From an uncultured Candidatus Saccharibacteria bacterium (lineage in GTDB: Bacteria > Patescibacteriota > Minisyncoccia > UBA6257 > 1-14-0-10-44-23), in NCBI GenBank assembly GCA_964394435.1, contig CAYMXN010000001.1:235928-299927 (forward strand): a DNA stretch of 64,000 nt, read 5' to 3'. The stretch's first letter is position 1. Every line of letters begins with the position of its first letter. Made by a program: the position numbers and the translations under genes. The notes under the pieces are model-generated. The model saw only the letters and a program-made list of their open reading frames with translations. It was not told where the DNA came from and searched no databases. This document shows positions 5,632-57,203 of the stretch, one piece after another.

Positions 5632-5889
5632 CTATTTTACTCCAGCCCAATTTTTAACGTCTTCATAGCTCACCTCTCCACAAATCGTACTTCCGGTTTC
5701 GGTATTGATATAAAACGGAACGCCGCCGCACTTACCCTGATCATAGCTCTCCATTTTCTTTGCATTCTCTTCGTTGTGCCAAACCTCAAACTTTTCTACT
5801 TTTACTCCCGTCTCTTTTTCGAGTTGCTCGATGAGTGGCTGCATACGTACGCAGTGCGGGCACTCTTTTCCATAAAATTCTAATAACAT
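5632..5889 (-). CDS. Thioredoxin-fold protein (CPHC active site)
   Basis: 85 aa with EFYGKECPHCVRM motif, typical of small thioredoxin/glutaredoxin-like proteins. Confidence 0.75.
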   Translation of the reverse strand: MLLEFYGKECPHCVRMQPLIEQLEKETGVKVEKFEVWHNEENAKKMESYDQGKCGGVPFYINTETGSTICGEVSYEDVKNWAGVK

Positions 5890-5989
5890 ATATGACTAAG
5901 ATATCATATAGTTTTTTGATTGCAAGATTCTTTTGGCTATTTTAAAAAATAAAACGCCCCAACCAATCGCTTGGTGGGGGCGGAAGAAC

Positions 5990-6118
5990 CTAGCGCCGAC
6001 GCCTGGCAAGCATCAACGCAGTCGCTTTGAGAAACTCGAAAGCGACCGGGGCGAGCGCCTCGATTCGCTTAAGCTCCTTGCGATACTCCACCGGATCAAC
6101 CGTGAAGATACGACCCAT
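5990..6118 (-). CDS. GC-rich 42-aa micro-ORF (MGRIFTVDPVEYRKELKRIEALAPVAFEFLKATALMLARRRR)
   Basis: Hand translation. AGGAGG lies 6 nt upstream of the ATG. 29 of 42 codons end in G/C. Stop is followed by hairpin cgcccccaccaa-gcga-ttggttggggcg plus T-run. Possible TTCACA-N18-TATAAC promoter. Confidence 0.45.
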   Translation of the reverse strand: MGRIFTVDPVEYRKELKRIEALAPVAFEFLKATALMLARRRR

Positions 6119-6185
6119 TCGACCCTCCTGGGGTATGAGAAATGACCTGCCTTGTTATACAACAGGCCTATGTCCACTGTGAAAA

Positions 6186-6593
6186 CTACGATTCGTCTGC
6201 GAGTTTGTTTACCGTAATCATTACCGTATCGGGAAGCCTAAATCCCCCAAGCAAAAACTGATACCCACCATCACTTATCGCGATACGCGTGACGCTTCCG
6301 AGTGAGATTTCTTTTGTTTGCGTGAAAGTCGATCCGCTCAAACGAAGATACGCGTTAACCTCTCCCGCCCAAATACACTGTACGTCTTTTGGACAGCGTG
6401 AGTCAGTTACCTGAATAAGCTCGATAGATAATCCATCTGGATACTGAACTGGTACGCCTTTCTCAATCTCAATTTTTGAACCATACTCAACCGTAGTTGG
6501 CTCTGGCAGCTTGTCTTTTTGAATACGAATCCAGGCGAATGCAGCGCCGGCAATTGCGAGAATAAGCAAGATGATTTCGATTTTTTTCTTCAT
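6186..6593 (-). CDS. Membrane-anchored hypothetical protein (DSRCPxDVxCIWAG motif)
   Basis: Trimmed from ORF 6186..6779 to the MKKKIEIILLILAIAGAAF signal-anchor start; the start could instead be 6602. The upstream extension overlaps the neighbouring gene. Confidence 0.6.
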   Translation of the reverse strand: MKKKIEIILLILAIAGAAFAWIRIQKDKLPEPTTVEYGSKIEIEKGVPVQYPDGLSIELIQVTDSRCPKDVQCIWAGEVNAYLRLSGSTFTQTKEISLGSVTRIAISDGGYQFLLGGFRLPDTVMITVNKLADES

Positions 6594-6672: not shown

Positions 6673-7515
6673 CTACTTTCGCCGCGGCGCAGGCAACTCC
6701 AACTCTCGTAGTGCTCGTTGCTGATATGCGACCGCTTCTGCGCGAAGCTGACCAGACGTAAGGCGAAATGGATGCCCAAAGAAGTAGCACAACGCAGACC
6801 TTAACCCGAAGCGCTTGATGACCGGGTATACGAGCCAGTGCCCACCGTTGTAGATGAGCGAGATGCGCATCGCCCTGTCGCTCCAACAACTCTCATCAAA
6901 CACTACTGGTATCAACCCGATGCTTGGCGAAACGTCTTCCGGGCCATCGCGTTCGACATACCGCGCGATACCTTCACAGAGCATATCGCTTGCTATCTCG
7001 TTTTGATGATCGCCCGATCCATAGCCAATACTCGGGAATGTGCCAAACCCCAGTCGGCGACTTAGTTGATCGGCAAGTGCGTGTGCGAGCTCGTGCGTAA
7101 TCGTATTACGAAGCTCGAGAGATAACTCTGGGTTGCTCTTATCTGGTTGATTTATGATGCAGTAGTCGAGCAAGCGACGATTTTCCCTGACGTGTTCGAA
7201 ATAGCCTGGGTTAAGCGTAAAGCCTTGCCGAGTTAGCTCATAGTGCGCGGCAAACGCAACCCCCTCAAGCGCTGGATGCGTTACGATCGGTATTTCAAAC
7301 TTAATCGTTGGCTTCCAGTGTTGATCAAACTCGATTCCGTACAGTTGCTCGATCGCCTGCATACGAGCCTCAAACGCCCGCTCAAATTGAGCGTACACAC
7401 TCAACTGTTCACCCGTCATTACTAATGATTGTGTCGCGCTCGCCCGAATTCTCTGACTACAACCCATTCCAAAGAACGCAAGGAGCGCCAATGAGACAAG
7501 CGTCTTTGATCGCAT
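6673..7515 (-). CDS. Putative lipoprotein zinc metalloprotease (HExxH)
   Basis: Lipobox LAFFGMGC, HELAHALADQ motif, AAGGGGTG SD before the ATG, and a terminator hairpin ccgcccacgtcgaaacgatgtgggcgg plus T-run downstream. Confidence 0.65.
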   Translation of the reverse strand: MRSKTLVSLALLAFFGMGCSQRIRASATQSLVMTGEQLSVYAQFERAFEARMQAIEQLYGIEFDQHWKPTIKFEIPIVTHPALEGVAFAAHYELTRQGFTLNPGYFEHVRENRRLLDYCIINQPDKSNPELSLELRNTITHELAHALADQLSRRLGFGTFPSIGYGSGDHQNEIASDMLCEGIARYVERDGPEDVSPSIGLIPVVFDESCWSDRAMRISLIYNGGHWLVYPVIKRFGLRSALCYFFGHPFRLTSGQLRAEAVAYQQRALRELELPAPRRK

Positions 7516-7605: not shown

Positions 7606-7634
7606 TTGACATATATATGCTTATATGCTATAAT
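7606..7634 (+). promoter_or_regulatory. Consensus sigma70-type promoter with extended -10
   Basis: TTGACA (7606-7611), 17-nt spacer, TGcTATAAT (-10 at 7629-7634). The spacer contains the direct repeat tatatgc-t-tatatgc. Confidence 0.7.
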
Positions 7635-7749
7635 GTACCTTAGAAAGCTGGTAAGTGGGACGTTCCCCTTGCTTGAGCTTTAGATCTTTGAGAAGAACAA
7701 GTCTGTGCGCTAAGAACGCACATTACGAAAGAAAGGCTCGGTTACTCGA

Positions 7750-8691
7750 ATGACCATGCACCACGTTCGCGCCACGATCTGCTTCGTGTCCCCCGACAAC
7801 CAGTGGGGGTTCGCGGAGGTCGTCGACTCGGAGACGGGCGACAAGAAGACGTGGATGTGCCACCGTCTCGGCCGTCGCGACGCGTTCGCGACGCAGCAGG
7901 GTACGATCACCTACTCCGACGCGAAGATCGCGTTCGGTCCCTTCCCGCAGCACGGCGACGTCGTCGTCGTGCTGGCGGAGAGGGCTCCCCAGGAGGGCAA
8001 GCAGTACCCCCAGGCCGTGTGGACCACGGCCGAGCAGTACGACCCCTTCATCGAGATCGCCGCGGGCAACCGCGCCGCCTTCGCCGAGTACGCTCGTGAG
8101 CAGGAGCGGCTCGCCGCCAAGCGGGCGGAGCTCGAGCAGAAGCTCGCCACCCGGCGGGTGGAGCTCGAGCCCCAGGTCGGGCCGCTGCAGAAGCGGTTCG
8201 CGATCCAGGACCTGTCCCCCATCTTCAACCCCCTGAAGATGACCCGGGTCGTCGTCAAGGAGCTCGGCCGCGAGCAGATGCTCGCGGAGACCGAGGACGG
8301 CGTCAAGGTCGTCCTGCCCCTGAACGTCCAGCACCTCGTGGTGATCAACCCGCGCGGCCCGTCGATCACGGCGGCGCCGGCGGCGACGCCCCGGATGCTG
8401 GCGATCGGCGAGGTCGCGTACGTGCGCAGCGCGTACGTGAGCATCCTCGAGGAGGACGAGGACCTCGTCCTCAAGATCCAGGCGAACGCCTGGATCAGCC
8501 AGCTCCAGGCGGAGCGGGTGGTGATGACGGGCCTCACGAAGGCCCAGAACACCCTCGCCATGAAGGCGGTGGAGGCCGCGGACACCGAGCGTCAGCGGCA
8601 GGAGGCGATCGCGCGGTCGCACATCAAGGGGCCGAAGCTGTCGCCCCCGCCCAAGGGCGGCATGGCGAAGGCGCTCGCTCGCGGGCGCTAG
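7750..8691 (+). CDS. GC-rich hypothetical protein: N-terminal cold-shock/OB-like segment plus coiled coil
   Basis: 313 aa. ATICFVSPDNQWGFAEVVDSETGDKKTWMCH resembles the CSD pattern (GxVxWF..GFGFI...G.D.FVH). Central EQERLAAKRAELEQKLATRRVELE coiled coil. Sampled lines have 42-43/60 G+C. Has its own promoter and terminator. Confidence 0.7.
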   Translation: MTMHHVRATICFVSPDNQWGFAEVVDSETGDKKTWMCHRLGRRDAFATQQGTITYSDAKIAFGPFPQHGDVVVVLAERAPQEGKQYPQAVWTTAEQYDPFIEIAAGNRAAFAEYAREQERLAAKRAELEQKLATRRVELEPQVGPLQKRFAIQDLSPIFNPLKMTRVVVKELGREQMLAETEDGVKVVLPLNVQHLVVINPRGPSITAAPAATPRMLAIGEVAYVRSAYVSILEEDEDLVLKIQANAWISQLQAERVVMTGLTKAQNTLAMKAVEAADTERQRQEAIARSHIKGPKLSPPPKGGMAKALARGR

Positions 8692-8717
8692 CACGCACTA
8701 CCCCATCCTACGGGGTT

Positions 8718-8762
8718 GGCGCGGATGCAGATCGAAAGATCTTGTGTCCGCGCCTTTTTTAT
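8718..8762 (+). terminator. Intrinsic terminator of the GC-rich cassette
   Basis: ggcgcgga...tccgcgcc stem (inner gatc-gaaa-gatc) followed by ttttttt; abuts the stop of the convergent M23 gene. Confidence 0.75.
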
Positions 8763-9598
8763 TTAAACGCGCTTACAAATTTAAGCGGGTCGATTGAGAT
8801 GCCGTTTACCTTCAGCGAAAGGTGTAAGTGTGGTCCGGAAGCGTACCCGGTTTGCCCAACCGTTCCGATGATAGTTCCTTTTTTTACTTTCTGTCCTGGT
8901 CTTACACTCATCGAGTTCAAATGAAGATAGAGCGTCGCAATACCCTGTCCGTGATCGACGATAACCGAGTTGCCGTAAATCGAATCGAGATACGCTTTTT
9001 GTACTACCCCGTCGTTGATGACCGCCACTGGCGTACCAACTTTAGCAGTAAAGTCTACTCCGTAGTGATGAGTTACTTCGGTGCCAGTTTTGCGCGTCTC
9101 GCCATATGTACTGCCAATATTACGATTATCGTAAAGCGGCAGACCAAACCCACTCGTAAAATATATTTCCGGTGTTTTAGTTTCGAGATCTTTATTAATC
9201 TGGGTATTTGAGGTAGCTAAACTTTGCGTAAGCTGTTTTGGCGTAAGATTAAGCTTTTCTGGCACGGGAAGATTAATAACCGTAAATACTCCCGGGCGAA
9301 CGGTAAGTGTTTTTTCATACGTTGTCTGGTCTTCAAACGTAATGACTAGTTTGTGTGCTCCAGCCTTGGTCGCAAACGCGATTGGCACGAGCGCCCGATA
9401 CCCTCCTTGATACGCGAAGAGCGGAACTTCTTGGGCGTCATACATCACTTTGACTGGCTTTACCTCATTACTTATTTTGATTACGACAGTCTCTCCTTGG
9501 CGCGGGGTAAGTGTAGAAAAATTTGGCGCCGTAGCGTAAGCGTTTATTGCTAGGGCGAGTGCACATATCGAAATTATAAACGGGGATAATCGTCTCAT
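8759..9598 (-). CDS. M23 family (LytM-like) metallopeptidase
   Basis: HYGVDFTAKVGTPV and GPHLHLSLKVNG motifs, with an N-terminal signal peptide. Confidence 0.85.
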   Translation of the reverse strand: MRRLSPFIISICALALAINAYATAPNFSTLTPRQGETVVIKISNEVKPVKVMYDAQEVPLFAYQGGYRALVPIAFATKAGAHKLVITFEDQTTYEKTLTVRPGVFTVINLPVPEKLNLTPKQLTQSLATSNTQINKDLETKTPEIYFTSGFGLPLYDNRNIGSTYGETRKTGTEVTHHYGVDFTAKVGTPVAVINDGVVQKAYLDSIYGNSVIVDHGQGIATLYLHLNSMSVRPGQKVKKGTIIGTVGQTGYASGPHLHLSLKVNGISIDPLKFVSAFK

Positions 9599-19798: not shown

Positions 19799-19826
19799 TT
19801 GACAAATATAATAGGTATGCTATACT
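19799..19826 (+). promoter_or_regulatory. Promoter TTGACA-N16-TGcTATACT driving the orphan RNA
   Basis: -35 at 19799-19804, extended -10 TGC plus TATACT at 19818-19826. Confidence 0.65.
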
Positions 19827-19832
19827 AATTTT

Positions 19833-20064
19833 ATCCACGGGTGGGGAAACCAGCCCCGCGGACGCGCAAGCGGCGTTACGAAAATAACGTTGCGGGCGGC
19901 CACCTGGAGAAGTTAAGAAATCACTCTTGGGCTAACGGCCCACCCCGCTGGCACGGCGCGCAAGTGTCGTGCCAGCGGGCTCTACTCTAATTTAGGGGCA
20001 TCTACATCTAATATTCGCCCCGCCTAAAGGCCAGACTCTTCTCAGAGCTCTGGCCGCTTTTTTT
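19833..20064 (+). ncRNA. Orphan GC-rich structured RNA of unknown class (~230 nt)
   Basis: No ORF of 60 aa or more in any frame. Helices: 12-bp cccgctggcacg/cgtgccagcggg (19944-19979) capped by a GCAA tetraloop; gcggcgtta/taacgttgc (19870-19893) with G-U pairs valid only on the + strand; long-range gggtggg/cccaccc (19839-45 / 19939-45). Terminator hairpin 20029-20055 plus T-run. Confidence 0.6.
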
Positions 20065-43500: not shown

Positions 43501-43539
43501 ATAAAAAGAGCGGACGATGTATCTCTACATTGTCCGCTC
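43501..43539 (-). terminator. Strong intrinsic terminator after the Nudix-like gene
   Basis: gagcggac...gtccgctc long stem followed by tttttatt on the minus strand. A second hairpin lies at 43543-43566. Confidence 0.75.
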
Positions 43540-43570
43540 ATCGCCCGCCTGTTGGCGGACGGGTGCGAAA

Positions 43571-44263
43571 CTAGTGACCGAAGCGGTAACCGTAACCCTG
43601 TGCACGCGCCCGATGGGCCGCCAACATCACCTCTACAAACGTGTGGCTCATGTCGTACGACCACTCTCCCTCGATCGGGAGCGTATCGAGAGAGTACCAC
43701 TCGAGGCCACTCGCCTCGGCCTGGTTGTCTCCGCTCTTCACCCCGAACACGACCTGCTGGTCGTGCGTACCCGCGTACGTCACGATGTGGGTCGAGGCGT
43801 AGCTGTGCTTGCCCGGGTCGTGGGAGAATCCGTTGCGATTACGACCGTCCATCTGAGGCGCGTACTGGCGCATACAGACCGGATGGGCCCAACCGAGCGG
43901 CAGCTCGACGTCGATGCCGAGATCGCTCTTGTAGTGGAACTTCAAGGCGTCCTCGATGGACTGGTAAAGTCCGACCACGCCGCCGACGATGGCGAGCTTG
44001 CCAGGAAAGCGCCCCGTCCGACGACGGATGACACCGCCGAGCAACTGACCCGTCTTCGGGTCCTGCTTGACGATGACGCCGTCGACACAGGGCACGGCAC
44101 CGAGCTTCGTACGCAAGGGCCAGACCGCTCCCGAGACCCGCCCGTCCGGCTGGACGAGCTGATCGAGATCCGAACGCTGGGCGAGGATCTCGGCGAGTTG
44201 CCGAGTGCTGTAGCCCACCAGCCGATCCGCAAGGTCGGCAGTCGAATCAGTCCTTTCGGACAT
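43571..44263 (-). CDS. GC-rich Nudix-fold, DUF4916-like protein (degenerate Nudix box)
   Basis: Trimmed to MSERTDSTADL (GGAGG SD 6 nt upstream). AVPCVDGVIV...GKLAIVGGVVGLYQSIEDALKFHYKSDLGI follows the Nudix strand-loop-helix layout without the full GX5EX7REUXEEXGU box. 42/60 G+C at 43981-44040. Confidence 0.65.
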   Translation of the reverse strand: MSERTDSTADLADRLVGYSTRQLAEILAQRSDLDQLVQPDGRVSGAVWPLRTKLGAVPCVDGVIVKQDPKTGQLLGGVIRRRTGRFPGKLAIVGGVVGLYQSIEDALKFHYKSDLGIDVELPLGWAHPVCMRQYAPQMDGRNRNGFSHDPGKHSYASTHIVTYAGTHDQQVVFGVKSGDNQAEASGLEWYSLDTLPIEGEWSYDMSHTFVEVMLAAHRARAQGYGYRFGH

Positions 44264-44314
44264 CGGAAACCTCCGGGAAATACCCTCCGCAACCGATTGT
44301 TGTGGATTAGATAT

Positions 44315-44343
44315 GTTATAGCATAAAATATGCCCAAAGTCAA
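44315..44343 (-). promoter_or_regulatory. Promoter TTGACT-N17-TGcTATAAC with GCATA-TTT-TATGC palindrome in the spacer
   Basis: Minus strand reads gaTTGACTttggGCATAtttTATGCTATAACatat. Confidence 0.65.
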
Positions 44344-55961: not shown

Positions 55962-56142
55962 TGTAGCCGCCTGCCTACCTAATAAGAGTAAATGACCACT
56001 AACTCAATGCTCCAGGCTATCTGAAATGCTGAGTTAGTTGCAGGAGAAGAGGTTTGAATTCTTCTCCTGCGATGCTTGAGGCGAACTCGTACGTTCGCCT
56101 CGACCTGTTGCGCGGGGTACGACCCGCTGTCTCGAGTCTCGC

Positions 56143-56976
56143 CTACGAGGCGAGACCCTTCTTCACCGCGGCGAGGACCACCTCGCCGTCGATTCCGCTG
56201 GCACCCCAGTAGGCGGGCTGTCCCGCCTTGCCGAGGCCTGCGCCACCCGACCAGCCACCCAAGTGCTCCTTCAAGCTGGCACAGAGCGCGCCGTCCCCGT
56301 AGAAGTTCACCTCCCCGTCCTTCGAGAGGATGAGGAGCTGGTCGACGGCCCCGTAGAGGCGGTCAGCGACCGCTGAGGTCTTCGAGTGGTCCATGCGGAC
56401 CACCGTCAGACGTCCGTCCACCTCCTTCGCGCCGATGGCGCGGAGGGCCTCTGTCTCGTGCGCGGGGGTCACCCCCTGCGCCGCACGGTCTAGCGCACGA
56501 ATGCGCTCGACCTCGGCGTCAGATGCCCCGAGCGCCCGCATCGCAGGGACGTACCCCGCGTCGTTGGCACCTACGAGCTCGATCCAGCGACGAGTCTGCT
56601 CGCTGGTCGGCATCTTAATCAGTGCCAAAACCTGCTGCACCGCCGGGGGACGGTGCGACTGGTCGCCGTGATGGTCGACGACCACCACCTCAGTCTGCTC
56701 CGGCCACTCCTTGGTCGGCGAGCACTCGACGAAGATGACGCATTCGATGCCGGCACACCGCGTCGACTTACGGTTGTGCTGCCAGAAGTCTGGTCCGGTC
56801 TGGACCAGGATCTCCTCGACCGTGAGGCCAAGGTCGCCTGCGGCGGCGTAGACATGCGACCCCCAGCCCTTGTTGGGCTGGACCCACTTCTCACCCGCGA
56901 GGGTGAGGAGAGAGCGAACGACCTCCATTTCGAGGTCGTTCCCGCCGAGTACGAACAAACGGTTGGCCTTACCCAT
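56143..56976 (-). CDS. GC-rich DHH-family-like phosphoesterase (divergent motifs)
   Basis: Trimmed to MGKANRLFVLGGNDLEME (GGAG SD). Motif spacing fits DHH proteins: NDLE at residues ~13-16 (DxD-like), VECS at ~83-86, VVVVDHHGD at 97-105, C-terminal GGWSGGAG (GGGH-like). 45/60 G+C at 56461-56520. Confidence 0.6.
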   Translation of the reverse strand: MGKANRLFVLGGNDLEMEVVRSLLTLAGEKWVQPNKGWGSHVYAAAGDLGLTVEEILVQTGPDFWQHNRKSTRCAGIECVIFVECSPTKEWPEQTEVVVVDHHGDQSHRPPAVQQVLALIKMPTSEQTRRWIELVGANDAGYVPAMRALGASDAEVERIRALDRAAQGVTPAHETEALRAIGAKEVDGRLTVVRMDHSKTSAVADRLYGAVDQLLILSKDGEVNFYGDGALCASLKEHLGGWSGGAGLGKAGQPAYWGASGIDGEVVLAAVKKGLAS

Positions 56977-57174
56977 CGAAATCTCCAGTTGGTCCGGAAG
57001 GACCGTGAATCCACTTCGGGCGTTTCCGCTCAGGTAGGACGACACCTCTGGATAAGCACTTTATTTTACAACCCGGCTTGGAAGGTTGTCCGCTCTGCGA
57101 GCAGCGTTTTAGGCGCAAATACGCTCAAAACACTGCTCACGAACGGTCTATTTCAATGAACGACTTAGATATTT

Positions 57175-57203
57175 AATATAGCATATTTTTATGCTTTTGT
57201 CAA
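57175..57203 (-). promoter_or_regulatory. Promoter TTGACA-N17-TGcTATATT with GCATA-AAAA-TATGC palindrome in the spacer
   Basis: Minus strand reads gaTTGACAaaaGCATAaaaaTATGCTATATTaaat. Leaves a leader of about 190 nt before the DHH-like ATG. Confidence 0.65.

Follow-up and report, generated by a model that had tools for sequence, protein, structure and literature searches.

A 64,000-nucleotide (nt) stretch from an uncultured Candidatus Saccharibacteria bacterium (contig CAYMXN010000001.1, positions 235,928 to 299,927; hereafter the window) carries a gene for a protein of 313 amino acids (aa) whose composition departs sharply from that of its surroundings. We refer to this gene, its promoter, its leader and its terminator as cassette 1. 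The interpretation we favor, to which we give about an even chance, is that cassette 1 is a native, vertically inherited Saccharibacteria gene organized as an autonomous and strongly transcribed unit, that its transcript is under selection for dense base pairing, and that it encodes a likely RNA-binding protein of the OB type. The unit would consist of a near-perfect sigma-70 promoter, a leader with a hairpin almost at its 5' end, the open reading frame (ORF) and tandem terminator hairpins. Its product would be a cytoplasmic protein in which two OB-fold (S1/cold-shock-like) domains are joined by long helices, which probably mediate oligomerization, and are followed by a conserved basic tail. 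The extreme GC content at third codon positions (GC3) would be held by selection on the transcript rather than persist as a relic of import; constrained synonymous sites, together with pairing beyond what codon usage or dinucleotide content provides, point to such selection. The resulting mRNA, which would lack A/U-rich single-stranded stretches and be capped by one hairpin at its 5' end and others at its 3' end, should persist for long, withstand RNases and probably be difficult for ribosomes to translate.

The composition of the ORF is the feature most easily seen. Its GC content is 0.70 in a window of 0.48, where ordinary genes have a GC3 of about 0.47, and this composition begins and ends abruptly with the ORF, within tens of bases. 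A first-pass annotation of the sequence had proposed a GC-rich ORF of 313 aa, and this is indeed a real gene (Table 1). Orthologs were compared at four loci, namely the window itself and, on short contigs, L002, L003 (L003/L004) and L005. The last three share both flanking genes with the window, and the ortholog products are 57, 46-49 and 39-40% identical to the 313-aa protein (the methods vary), the lowest value being that of the fourth ortholog, located in L005. GC3 is 0.95-0.97 in all four orthologs and the flanking DNA has a GC content of 0.47-0.50; in the window, the genes on either side of cassette 1 have a GC3 of 0.43 (an M23 peptidase) and 0.56. At shared four-fold degenerate sites, 33-42% differ between orthologs, saturation being 55%, and A or T is found at only about 5% of these sites. 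The flanking M23 gene has 0.03-0.11 nonsynonymous (dN) and 0.68-1.49 synonymous (dS) substitutions per site, whereas cassette 1 has a dN of 0.35-0.65 and a lowered dS of 0.45-0.55. By our estimate, an unconstrained GC3 would decay to approximately 0.7-0.8 over a flanking dS of 0.7-1.5. As a GC3 of 0.95-0.97 is found in four lineages in which the flanking gene is near saturation, and as 1.8 billion representative proteins contain no relative from outside this lineage, the composition is actively maintained and is not that of a fresh import.

We also considered that the gene was acquired recently, and has not yet ameliorated, from a high-GC actinobacterium serving as host or from a phage of that host. 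Saccharibacteria live on Actinobacteria, and the C- and G-ending codons of the cassette presumably resemble the usage of high-GC members of that group. However, the searches do not reveal a donor. A search of 5.8 billion protein clusters turned up an identical copy of the 313-aa protein and two relatives, and an exhaustive HMMER search of 1.8 billion representatives returned the protein itself and one ortholog cluster, with no relative beyond this Saccharibacteria lineage. Scanning GTDB genomes and JGI metagenomes with protein patterns gave no further homologs, a DNA pattern derived from the conserved 3' block of the gene gave nothing in metagenomes, and a tblastn search of a phage collection gave no homolog. 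Moreover, the locus, the promoter and the terminator are shared by four diverged lineages, the GC3 lies well above the value estimated for neutral decay, and cassette 1 has neither flanking direct repeats nor insertion scars nor mobility genes. Such a transfer is, in our judgment, quite improbable. The first-pass annotation had described the composition as foreign and had pointed to high-GC genomes as the place to look for homologs. The gene is indeed atypical, but as a statement on its origin the word misleads and is the weakest part of the annotation: the searches above yielded no homologs in high-GC genomes, and orthologs were found only in Saccharibacteria loci, between the same flanking genes.

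The codon choice of cassette 1 is not an adaptation to the resident translation machinery. In the gene for GroEL, taken as a proxy for high expression, GC3 is 0.55, proline is encoded by CCA, and CCC and CGG are unused; cassette 1 uses CCC for 12 of its 19 prolines and CGG for 10 of its 23 arginines, and confines its T-ending codons to CGT, GGT, GCT and GTT. Amino acid use is skewed as well, with Ala, Arg and Pro favored and Phe, Tyr, Ile, Asn and Lys underused. Since this skew is toward amino acids with GC-rich codons, the pressure appears to act on nucleotides rather than on tRNA matching. Other sources of the GC enrichment were considered and rejected. It is not general to highly expressed genes, as the GC3 of GroEL indicates, nor to the type of promoter, given that the largest GC jump at 114 viral-contig sites with the same motif was +0.09; avoidance of a specific RNase motif was likewise discarded, with neither ACA nor UAC depleted. 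Two further properties of the ORF follow from a GC3 near 1, which leaves almost no A or T at third positions. The first is that A/T-only triplets are absent altogether, and the second is an antisense ORF of 323 aa (7723-8694) that shares the codon register of the sense ORF and was dismissed as a second gene on these grounds.

Folding of the coding region sets cassette 1 apart in another way. The RNA of its ORF folds at -516.5 kcal/mol, against -448 +/- 8 in dinucleotide shuffles (z -8.3), while the control genes M23 and GroEL have z values of +0.5 and -0.1 in the same procedure. Two other GC-rich units in the window, cassettes 2 and 3, which are described below, have values of -3.3 and -6.6. 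A second procedure shuffles synonymous codons so that both the protein and its codon usage remain fixed, and scores the folding in 120-nt windows. Here, the four orthologs have z values of -6.2 (window), -4.7, -2.1 and -3.2, and cassettes 2 and 3 have -3.5 and -4.6, compared with a range of -1.1 to +2.2 for six ordinary genes of the window. (For cassette 2 the fold runs began at 44266, which is in frame and one codon upstream of the ATG at 44263; the runs for cassette 3 span 56143-56973, without the start codon at 56976-56974.) The feature that is kept between orthologs is dense local pairing and not a particular fold.

A folding signal of this strength could also be that of a long structured non-coding RNA in which the open frame is an accident of GC content. 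A dN close to dS would fit this explanation, as would the removal of stop codons by high GC, which produces the long antisense ORF too. In contrast to what it would predict, the GC content at the three codon positions bears the signature of a coding frame, the indels between orthologs keep the frame, and the length of the ORF is conserved. In addition, conservation at the protein level is seen in the N-terminal domain and in the tail, with a dN/dS of about 0.3 between the window and L002, the AlphaFold model discussed below has confident folded domains, and the orthologs do not share a consensus RNA structure. Of all the explanations considered here, we regard this one as the least probable.

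Outside the coding region, the first-pass annotation had noted a textbook promoter and a leader of about 110 nt with hairpins, and both stand. The promoter has 12 of 12 consensus positions together with an extended -10 element and is the sole match of this kind in the window, where our own arithmetic gives about 0.02 such sites expected by chance on both strands; it is unchanged across the four orthologous loci (window, L002, L003 and L005). The leader has hairpins at 7644-7681 and 7704-7722. The first, in which aaagct...agcttt encloses a GGGA/UCCC stem, begins about 3 nt past the predicted transcription start and has a folding energy of -17.4 kcal/mol (z -3.0), better than all 200 shuffles; its counterpart in L002 has a z of -4.25. 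The second has the form gtgcg-ctaagaa-cgcac. Both are kept at equal positions in the orthologs with stem sequences that differ, and the entire 120-nt leader has only a modest folding advantage over shuffles (z -1.6). Rfam has no match for this leader, for that of cassette 3 or for the ORF of cassette 1. At the other end of the unit, a small hairpin is followed by one of 16 bp and by a U-run; L002 has a 3' end of like architecture and different sequence (z -6.4). The U-run shares nucleotides with the stop codon of the M23 peptidase gene, which converges on cassette 1, so the terminator is probably bidirectional. Sequence prediction thus gives a single gene bounded by its own promoter and terminator, both of which are conserved in the orthologs.

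The nature of the encoded protein was approached by structure prediction. An AlphaFold model, built from a three-sequence alignment, has a mean predicted local distance difference test (pLDDT) score of 70.5, with values of 80-88 over much of residues 121-250. It consists of a five-stranded OB-like beta domain (residues 4-93), a helix (100-150), a second beta domain (165-250), another helix (251-290) and a disordered basic tail rich in Lys, Arg, Pro and Gly (291-313), which is the order of beta segment, helical stretch, second beta region and basic tail that had been read from the sequence earlier. Inside the long helix, a direct repeat of 33 nt or 11 residues (8107-8285; RLAAKRAELEQKLA / KLATRRVELEPQVG) suggests a coiled coil built from repeats. 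Neither a signal peptide nor a membrane segment was seen by eye. As the first-pass annotation had also found, the protein belongs to no recognizable family: searches of Pfam (E<=1), PHROGs, NCBIfam, PADLOC and, with both a single sequence and a profile, PDB sequences gave no match. The top ranks in Foldseek were taken by two-domain bS1 and NusA in the PDB and by phage S1 proteins in BFVD, with marginal E-values of about 1e-3, and the OB/CSD-like (cold-shock domain) structural matches include CspB of M. tuberculosis; the output of the fold search is silent as to which of the two beta domains produced the OB matches. Structure prediction and homology searching therefore returned what the first-pass annotation had staked itself on, an OB-like fold and orthologs.

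The annotation had gone further and called the start of the protein cold-shock-like. A fuller form of this idea is that the gene encodes a cold-shock-type protein of foreign high-GC origin with a leader that confers CspA-like temperature control. The structural matches just mentioned agree with it, and the five-stranded antiparallel beta-barrel (OB fold) expected of a CSD is present in the model. The segments QWGFAEV and TWMCHRL sit on the strands equivalent to RNP1 (K-G-F-G-F-I) and RNP2 (V-F-V-H-F) in a register with which hhalign agrees, although the RNP motifs themselves are not matched. Where RNP1/RNP2 would be lie W19, F21, W35 and H38, which are invariant or nearly so among the orthologs, with W19, W35 and H38 strictly invariant. 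The leader is long and structured, and a U/C-rich element in it could pair with the purine-rich ribosome-binding region, a pairing seen in the minimum-energy fold only. However, the protein matches neither the CSD profile (PF00313) nor, in Pfam or NCBIfam, the S1 profile (PF00575), and hhalign of the four-ortholog profile against E. coli CspA aligns the expected strands without significance (E 0.11, probability 0.5%). Cold-shock proteins are about 70 aa long, whereas this protein has 313 aa and several domains. Furthermore, its composition is maintained in four lineages without a donor homolog, and the two other cassettes of the same design encode hydrolases. The resemblance to cold-shock proteins hence stands at the level of the modeled fold and not at that of family membership, and a cold-shock gene of foreign origin is unlikely. 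We assign an OB/S1/CSD-like fold to the model with moderate confidence; a protein of this fold would most likely bind RNA or another single-stranded nucleic acid.

The gene does not evolve evenly along its length. The last 52-55 codons or so and the 3' untranslated region (UTR) form a block that is 85-97% identical at the nucleotide level among the window, L003 and L005, compared with 55-65% for the body of the ORF and about 80% for the neighboring M23 gene; across the last 52 codons dS is 0.10-0.20. Trees of the segments conflict, the N-terminal part joining the window, L002 and L003 and the C-terminal part joining the window, L003 and L005. Therefore, the gene is a recombination mosaic. This brings in GC-biased gene conversion at a recombination hotspot, with diverged alleles arriving through natural transformation, as a source of the composition. 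Heteroduplex repair favoring G/C would have raised GC at every codon position and accelerated change in the protein, in which case the mRNA structure would be a side effect. The mosaic is what such a process would leave, as is a 3' block that is near-identical across lineages whose neighboring gene has a dS of 0.7-1.5, and the enrichment in amino acids with GC-rich codons along with a fast dN would be consistent with it. Yet the GC step tracks the boundaries of the ORF within tens of bases, and the M23 gene, which ends about 70 bp away and shares the high-identity tract, has a GC3 of only 0.43. Gene conversion does not predict folding beyond dinucleotide or codon composition either, and its known effects in bacteria amount to a few percent in GC3 and not to +0.5. 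It is the foremost of the alternatives to selection on the transcript, but still an unlikely one.

Several observations weigh against selection on the transcript. The dS of 0.45-0.55 was obtained with the NG86 method, which underestimates dS under extreme codon bias. The protein body is fast, with a dN close to or above dS in most comparisons, and identity across codons 100-261 is no more than 16-38% in ortholog pairs other than the window and L002, which reach 51-54%. Such a fast body is equally compatible with an arms-race protein or with biased mutation. For the ORF as a whole, an RNAalifold consensus of the four orthologs has an unfavorable covariation term and many broken pairs, after which a specific conserved structure spanning the ORF was set aside; selection would then favor foldedness in general, which is harder to prove than one structure. 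On the side of the protein, confidence in the model is moderate, with a pLDDT of 40-77 in the N-terminal domain, and the OB matches are modest. Finally, GroEL is a highly expressed resident gene without this design, so that the purpose of the design must be specific to the cassette genes and stays a guess. What the data show is the layout of the unit, its conservation, the held GC3, the lowered dS and the excess folding; the RNA-binding function and the purpose, whether mRNA stability or translational gating, are inferred.

Table 1. Positions of the three GC-rich cassettes, their parts and the genes flanking cassette 1, in coordinates of the window.
Feature	Position	Strand	Details
Gene flanking cassette 1 at its 5' side	6673-7515	-	lipoprotein-like, HExxH metalloprotease motif
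Cassette 1, promoter	7606..7634	+	TTGACA 7606-7611, 17-nt spacer ending TGC, extended -10 TGcTATAAT 7626-7634, TATAAT 7629-7634
Cassette 1, 5' leader	7641..7749	+	~108 nt given predicted transcription start near 7642; two hairpins; purine-rich stretch before ATG 7750
Cassette 1, ORF	7750..8691	+	313 aa; GC 0.695; GC1/2/3 = 0.68/0.43/0.97; A-ending codons zero
Cassette 1, nucleotide-conserved block	8527..8762	+	last ~52-55 codons (basic tail) and 3' UTR
Cassette 1, tandem 3' hairpins and U-run	8700..8760	+	hairpins 8700-8716 and 8718-8754, U-run 8755-8760; -36 kcal/mol, z -6.2
Gene flanking cassette 1 at its 3' side	8759-9598	-	M23 peptidoglycan peptidase
Cassette 2	43515..44343	-	promoter TTGACT-17-TGcTATAAC 44343-44315, short leader, GC-rich ORF 44263-43571, 3' hairpins
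Cassette 3	56040..57203	-	promoter TTGACA-17-TGcTATATT 57203-57175, ~195-nt structured leader, GC-rich ORF 56976-56143, three 3' hairpins

The surroundings of cassette 1 are those of its lineage (Table 1). The M23 peptidase shares 82% identity with one from a metagenome-assembled genome of Candidatus Saccharibacteria (L005), and the other genes of the window, among them dnaG, rpoD, alaS, groEL and those for rRNA methyltransferases, a P-type ATPase and a GGDEF protein, fit a reduced genome of the candidate phyla radiation (CPR). The lipoprotein-like gene on the other side evolves fast, with 33-67% identity between lineages, and a divergent promoter-like site at 7574-7546 points at it. Both flanking products are probably secreted hydrolases. 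In L005, an ORF of 161 aa (5703-6188, minus strand) with ordinary GC (about 0.53), its own promoter and a Shine-Dalgarno sequence lies just downstream of the ortholog. By hhalign (probability 86%, E 5.5e-6), its product is paralogous to the C-terminal half of the 313-aa protein; the window has no copy of it, and in the protein database it is a singleton.

Cassette 1 is not the only unit of its kind in the window. Cassette 2, which adjoins a Wzy_C/TPR membrane-protein gene (named from the Pfam annotation of an identical gene in L007), encodes a protein of 230 aa with a degenerate Nudix-like box, no Pfam match and a weak hint of NudI (E 0.013). Cassette 3 lies between dnaG and rpoD and encodes a 277-aa NrN-like DHH hydrolase related to the CorA-associated group. 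The PADLOC models that its protein matches, C3a116 (1e-46) and DHH_CorA (6e-31), stand for accessory nucleases of type III CRISPR; near the cassette, neither a CRISPR nor a CorA gene was noticed. An ortholog in another Saccharibacteria contig, L010, keeps the synteny, the promoter, the leader of about 195 nt and a GC3 of 0.87. Between these two, dS is 0.6 for cassette 3 and 2.6 or saturated for dnaG, rpoD and alaS. Since the genes for the Nudix-like and the NrN-like DHH proteins are built like cassette 1, a class of genes is at hand and not a single oddity. As for the origin of the composition, homologs of the DHH protein are widespread in other CPR lineages, where they stand out in GC content mildly or not at all; therefore, the GC-rich state of cassette 3 arose in place. 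The paralog of normal GC in L005 counts as a further sign that the composition evolved where it is found.

The leader of cassette 3 deserves mention in its own right. Between the window (57168-56977, minus strand) and L010 (5806-6000) it is about 80% conserved, with a multi-hairpin consensus and 6 compensatory pairs, and may be a candidate for a new cis-regulatory RNA. Homologs of the DHH gene were also seen on contigs of other CPR lineages, two of them as stand-alone units. One of these two (L133, 3788-5921) has a consensus promoter and adjoins genes for a phage-type integrase and type IV secretion system (T4SS) pilins, which suggests that a DHH unit can be mobile. The other (L135, 5001-5705) has a GC3 of 0.66 next to neighbors of about 0.42, and its annotated start looks truncated. 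A third (L011, 1-12906, a Staskawiczbacteria-like contig) is part of a run of 13 same-strand genes with gaps of 60-560 nt and no Pfam matches, which resembles a series of independent cassettes or a mobile element. In the window itself, a fourth promoter of this type (TTGACA-16-TGcTATACT, 19799-19826, plus strand) precedes a GC-rich non-coding stretch of about 230 nt that ends in a terminator (19799-20062) and is strongly folded (z -6.25). With no Rfam match and no tmRNA called by ARAGORN, this stretch is a candidate for an unclassified small RNA.

A further reading is that the cassettes are host-directed, their RNA or DNA being delivered to the high-GC host and their codons tuned for expression there. 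Codon usage that runs against the resident preference and toward the presumed actinobacterial one would make sense on this account, as would fast protein evolution of the sort seen in host-parasite conflict, an RNA predicted to be very stable, and companion cassettes encoding enzymes that degrade nucleotides or nucleotide signals. Against this, signals for transfer were not observed, essential genes such as dnaG and rpoD lie around the scattered cassettes, and neither the shift in amino acids nor the hyper-structured RNA would be needed. Nucleic-acid transfer from an epibiont to its host is, to our knowledge, also without precedent. A bolder variant holds that all three were recoded to the codon style of the actinobacterial host as ultra-stable RNAs that act or are translated in the host and whose products are host-manipulating factors. 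We consider this variant very improbable, and the delivery of a tuned cassette as such even more so. In a milder version, the cassettes would be a regulon whose mRNAs are stored and gated at translation, with the S1-like protein as the dedicated unwinder that enables their translation. It is plausible that all three products act on RNA or nucleotides, although a link of this kind is speculative.

Several known systems resemble cassette 1 in part. S1-domain proteins (bS1, the S1 domain of NusA and exosome Rrp4/Rrp40) and CSD proteins (CspA/CspB, Lin28 and Unr) are the best structural neighbors of the 313-aa protein. Like them, it is predicted to have five-stranded OB-type domains with aromatic residues on the second and third strands, and these domains would lie in tandem as in bS1. 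Both bS1 and CspA bind and melt structured RNA, and each controls its own mRNA through the leader. Unlike these proteins, however, the product of cassette 1 has domains that are split by helices of about 50 residues and followed by a basic tail, shows no detectable sequence relationship to them, and belongs to a family that is limited to a narrow Saccharibacteria lineage and has a body with dN close to dS.

With respect to gene organization, a parallel is found in phage morons, which are single genes of atypical composition, with their own promoter and terminator, inserted between other genes. The cassettes resemble them as stand-alone units of promoter, gene and terminator amid unrelated genes, with a sharp compositional contrast. 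In contrast to morons, they reside in a bacterial chromosome among genes for housekeeping and secreted enzymes and not in a prophage, the locus of cassette 1 is conserved across lineages, and its composition would be kept by selection instead of being derived from a donor. Stabilized mRNAs provide a second parallel. Stem-loops at the 5' end and hairpins at the 3' end are determinants of a long half-life where decay of the RNase J/Y type operates, and cassette 1 shares with the ompA, ermC and aprE leaders and the STAB-SD of cryIIIA a hairpin near the predicted 5' end and strong tandem 3' hairpins. Here, however, the entire coding region is recoded without A/U-rich stretches and is hyper-structured. 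In the literature searched we found no description of such recoding of coding regions in natural bacterial genes, and none for Saccharibacteria or any other CPR group of cassettes rich in GC. Lastly, genes that are codon outliers through translational selection have a low dS and a very strong promoter in common with cassette 1, which differs from them in preferring CCC and CGG, codons that GroEL avoids, and in having its amino acids shifted too.

An island of deviant composition is routinely taken as a sign of recent horizontal transfer, and cassette 1 is a clean counter-example: in a reduced epibiont of about 48% GC, single genes are held at a GC3 of 0.83-0.97 across lineages that are synonymously saturated elsewhere. 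Detectors of transfer that rely on composition will misclassify such genes. If selection on the transcript were confirmed, the cassettes would offer a natural setting in which to ask to what end selection acts on synonymous sites and mRNA structure. Such confirmation would also mean that Saccharibacteria treat a small, recognizable set of genes specially, consisting of an orphan S1/CSD-like protein and two probable hydrolases of nucleotides or nucleotide signals, and these genes would be candidates for a role in the stages, so far poorly understood, that these bacteria spend without a host or in attacking one.

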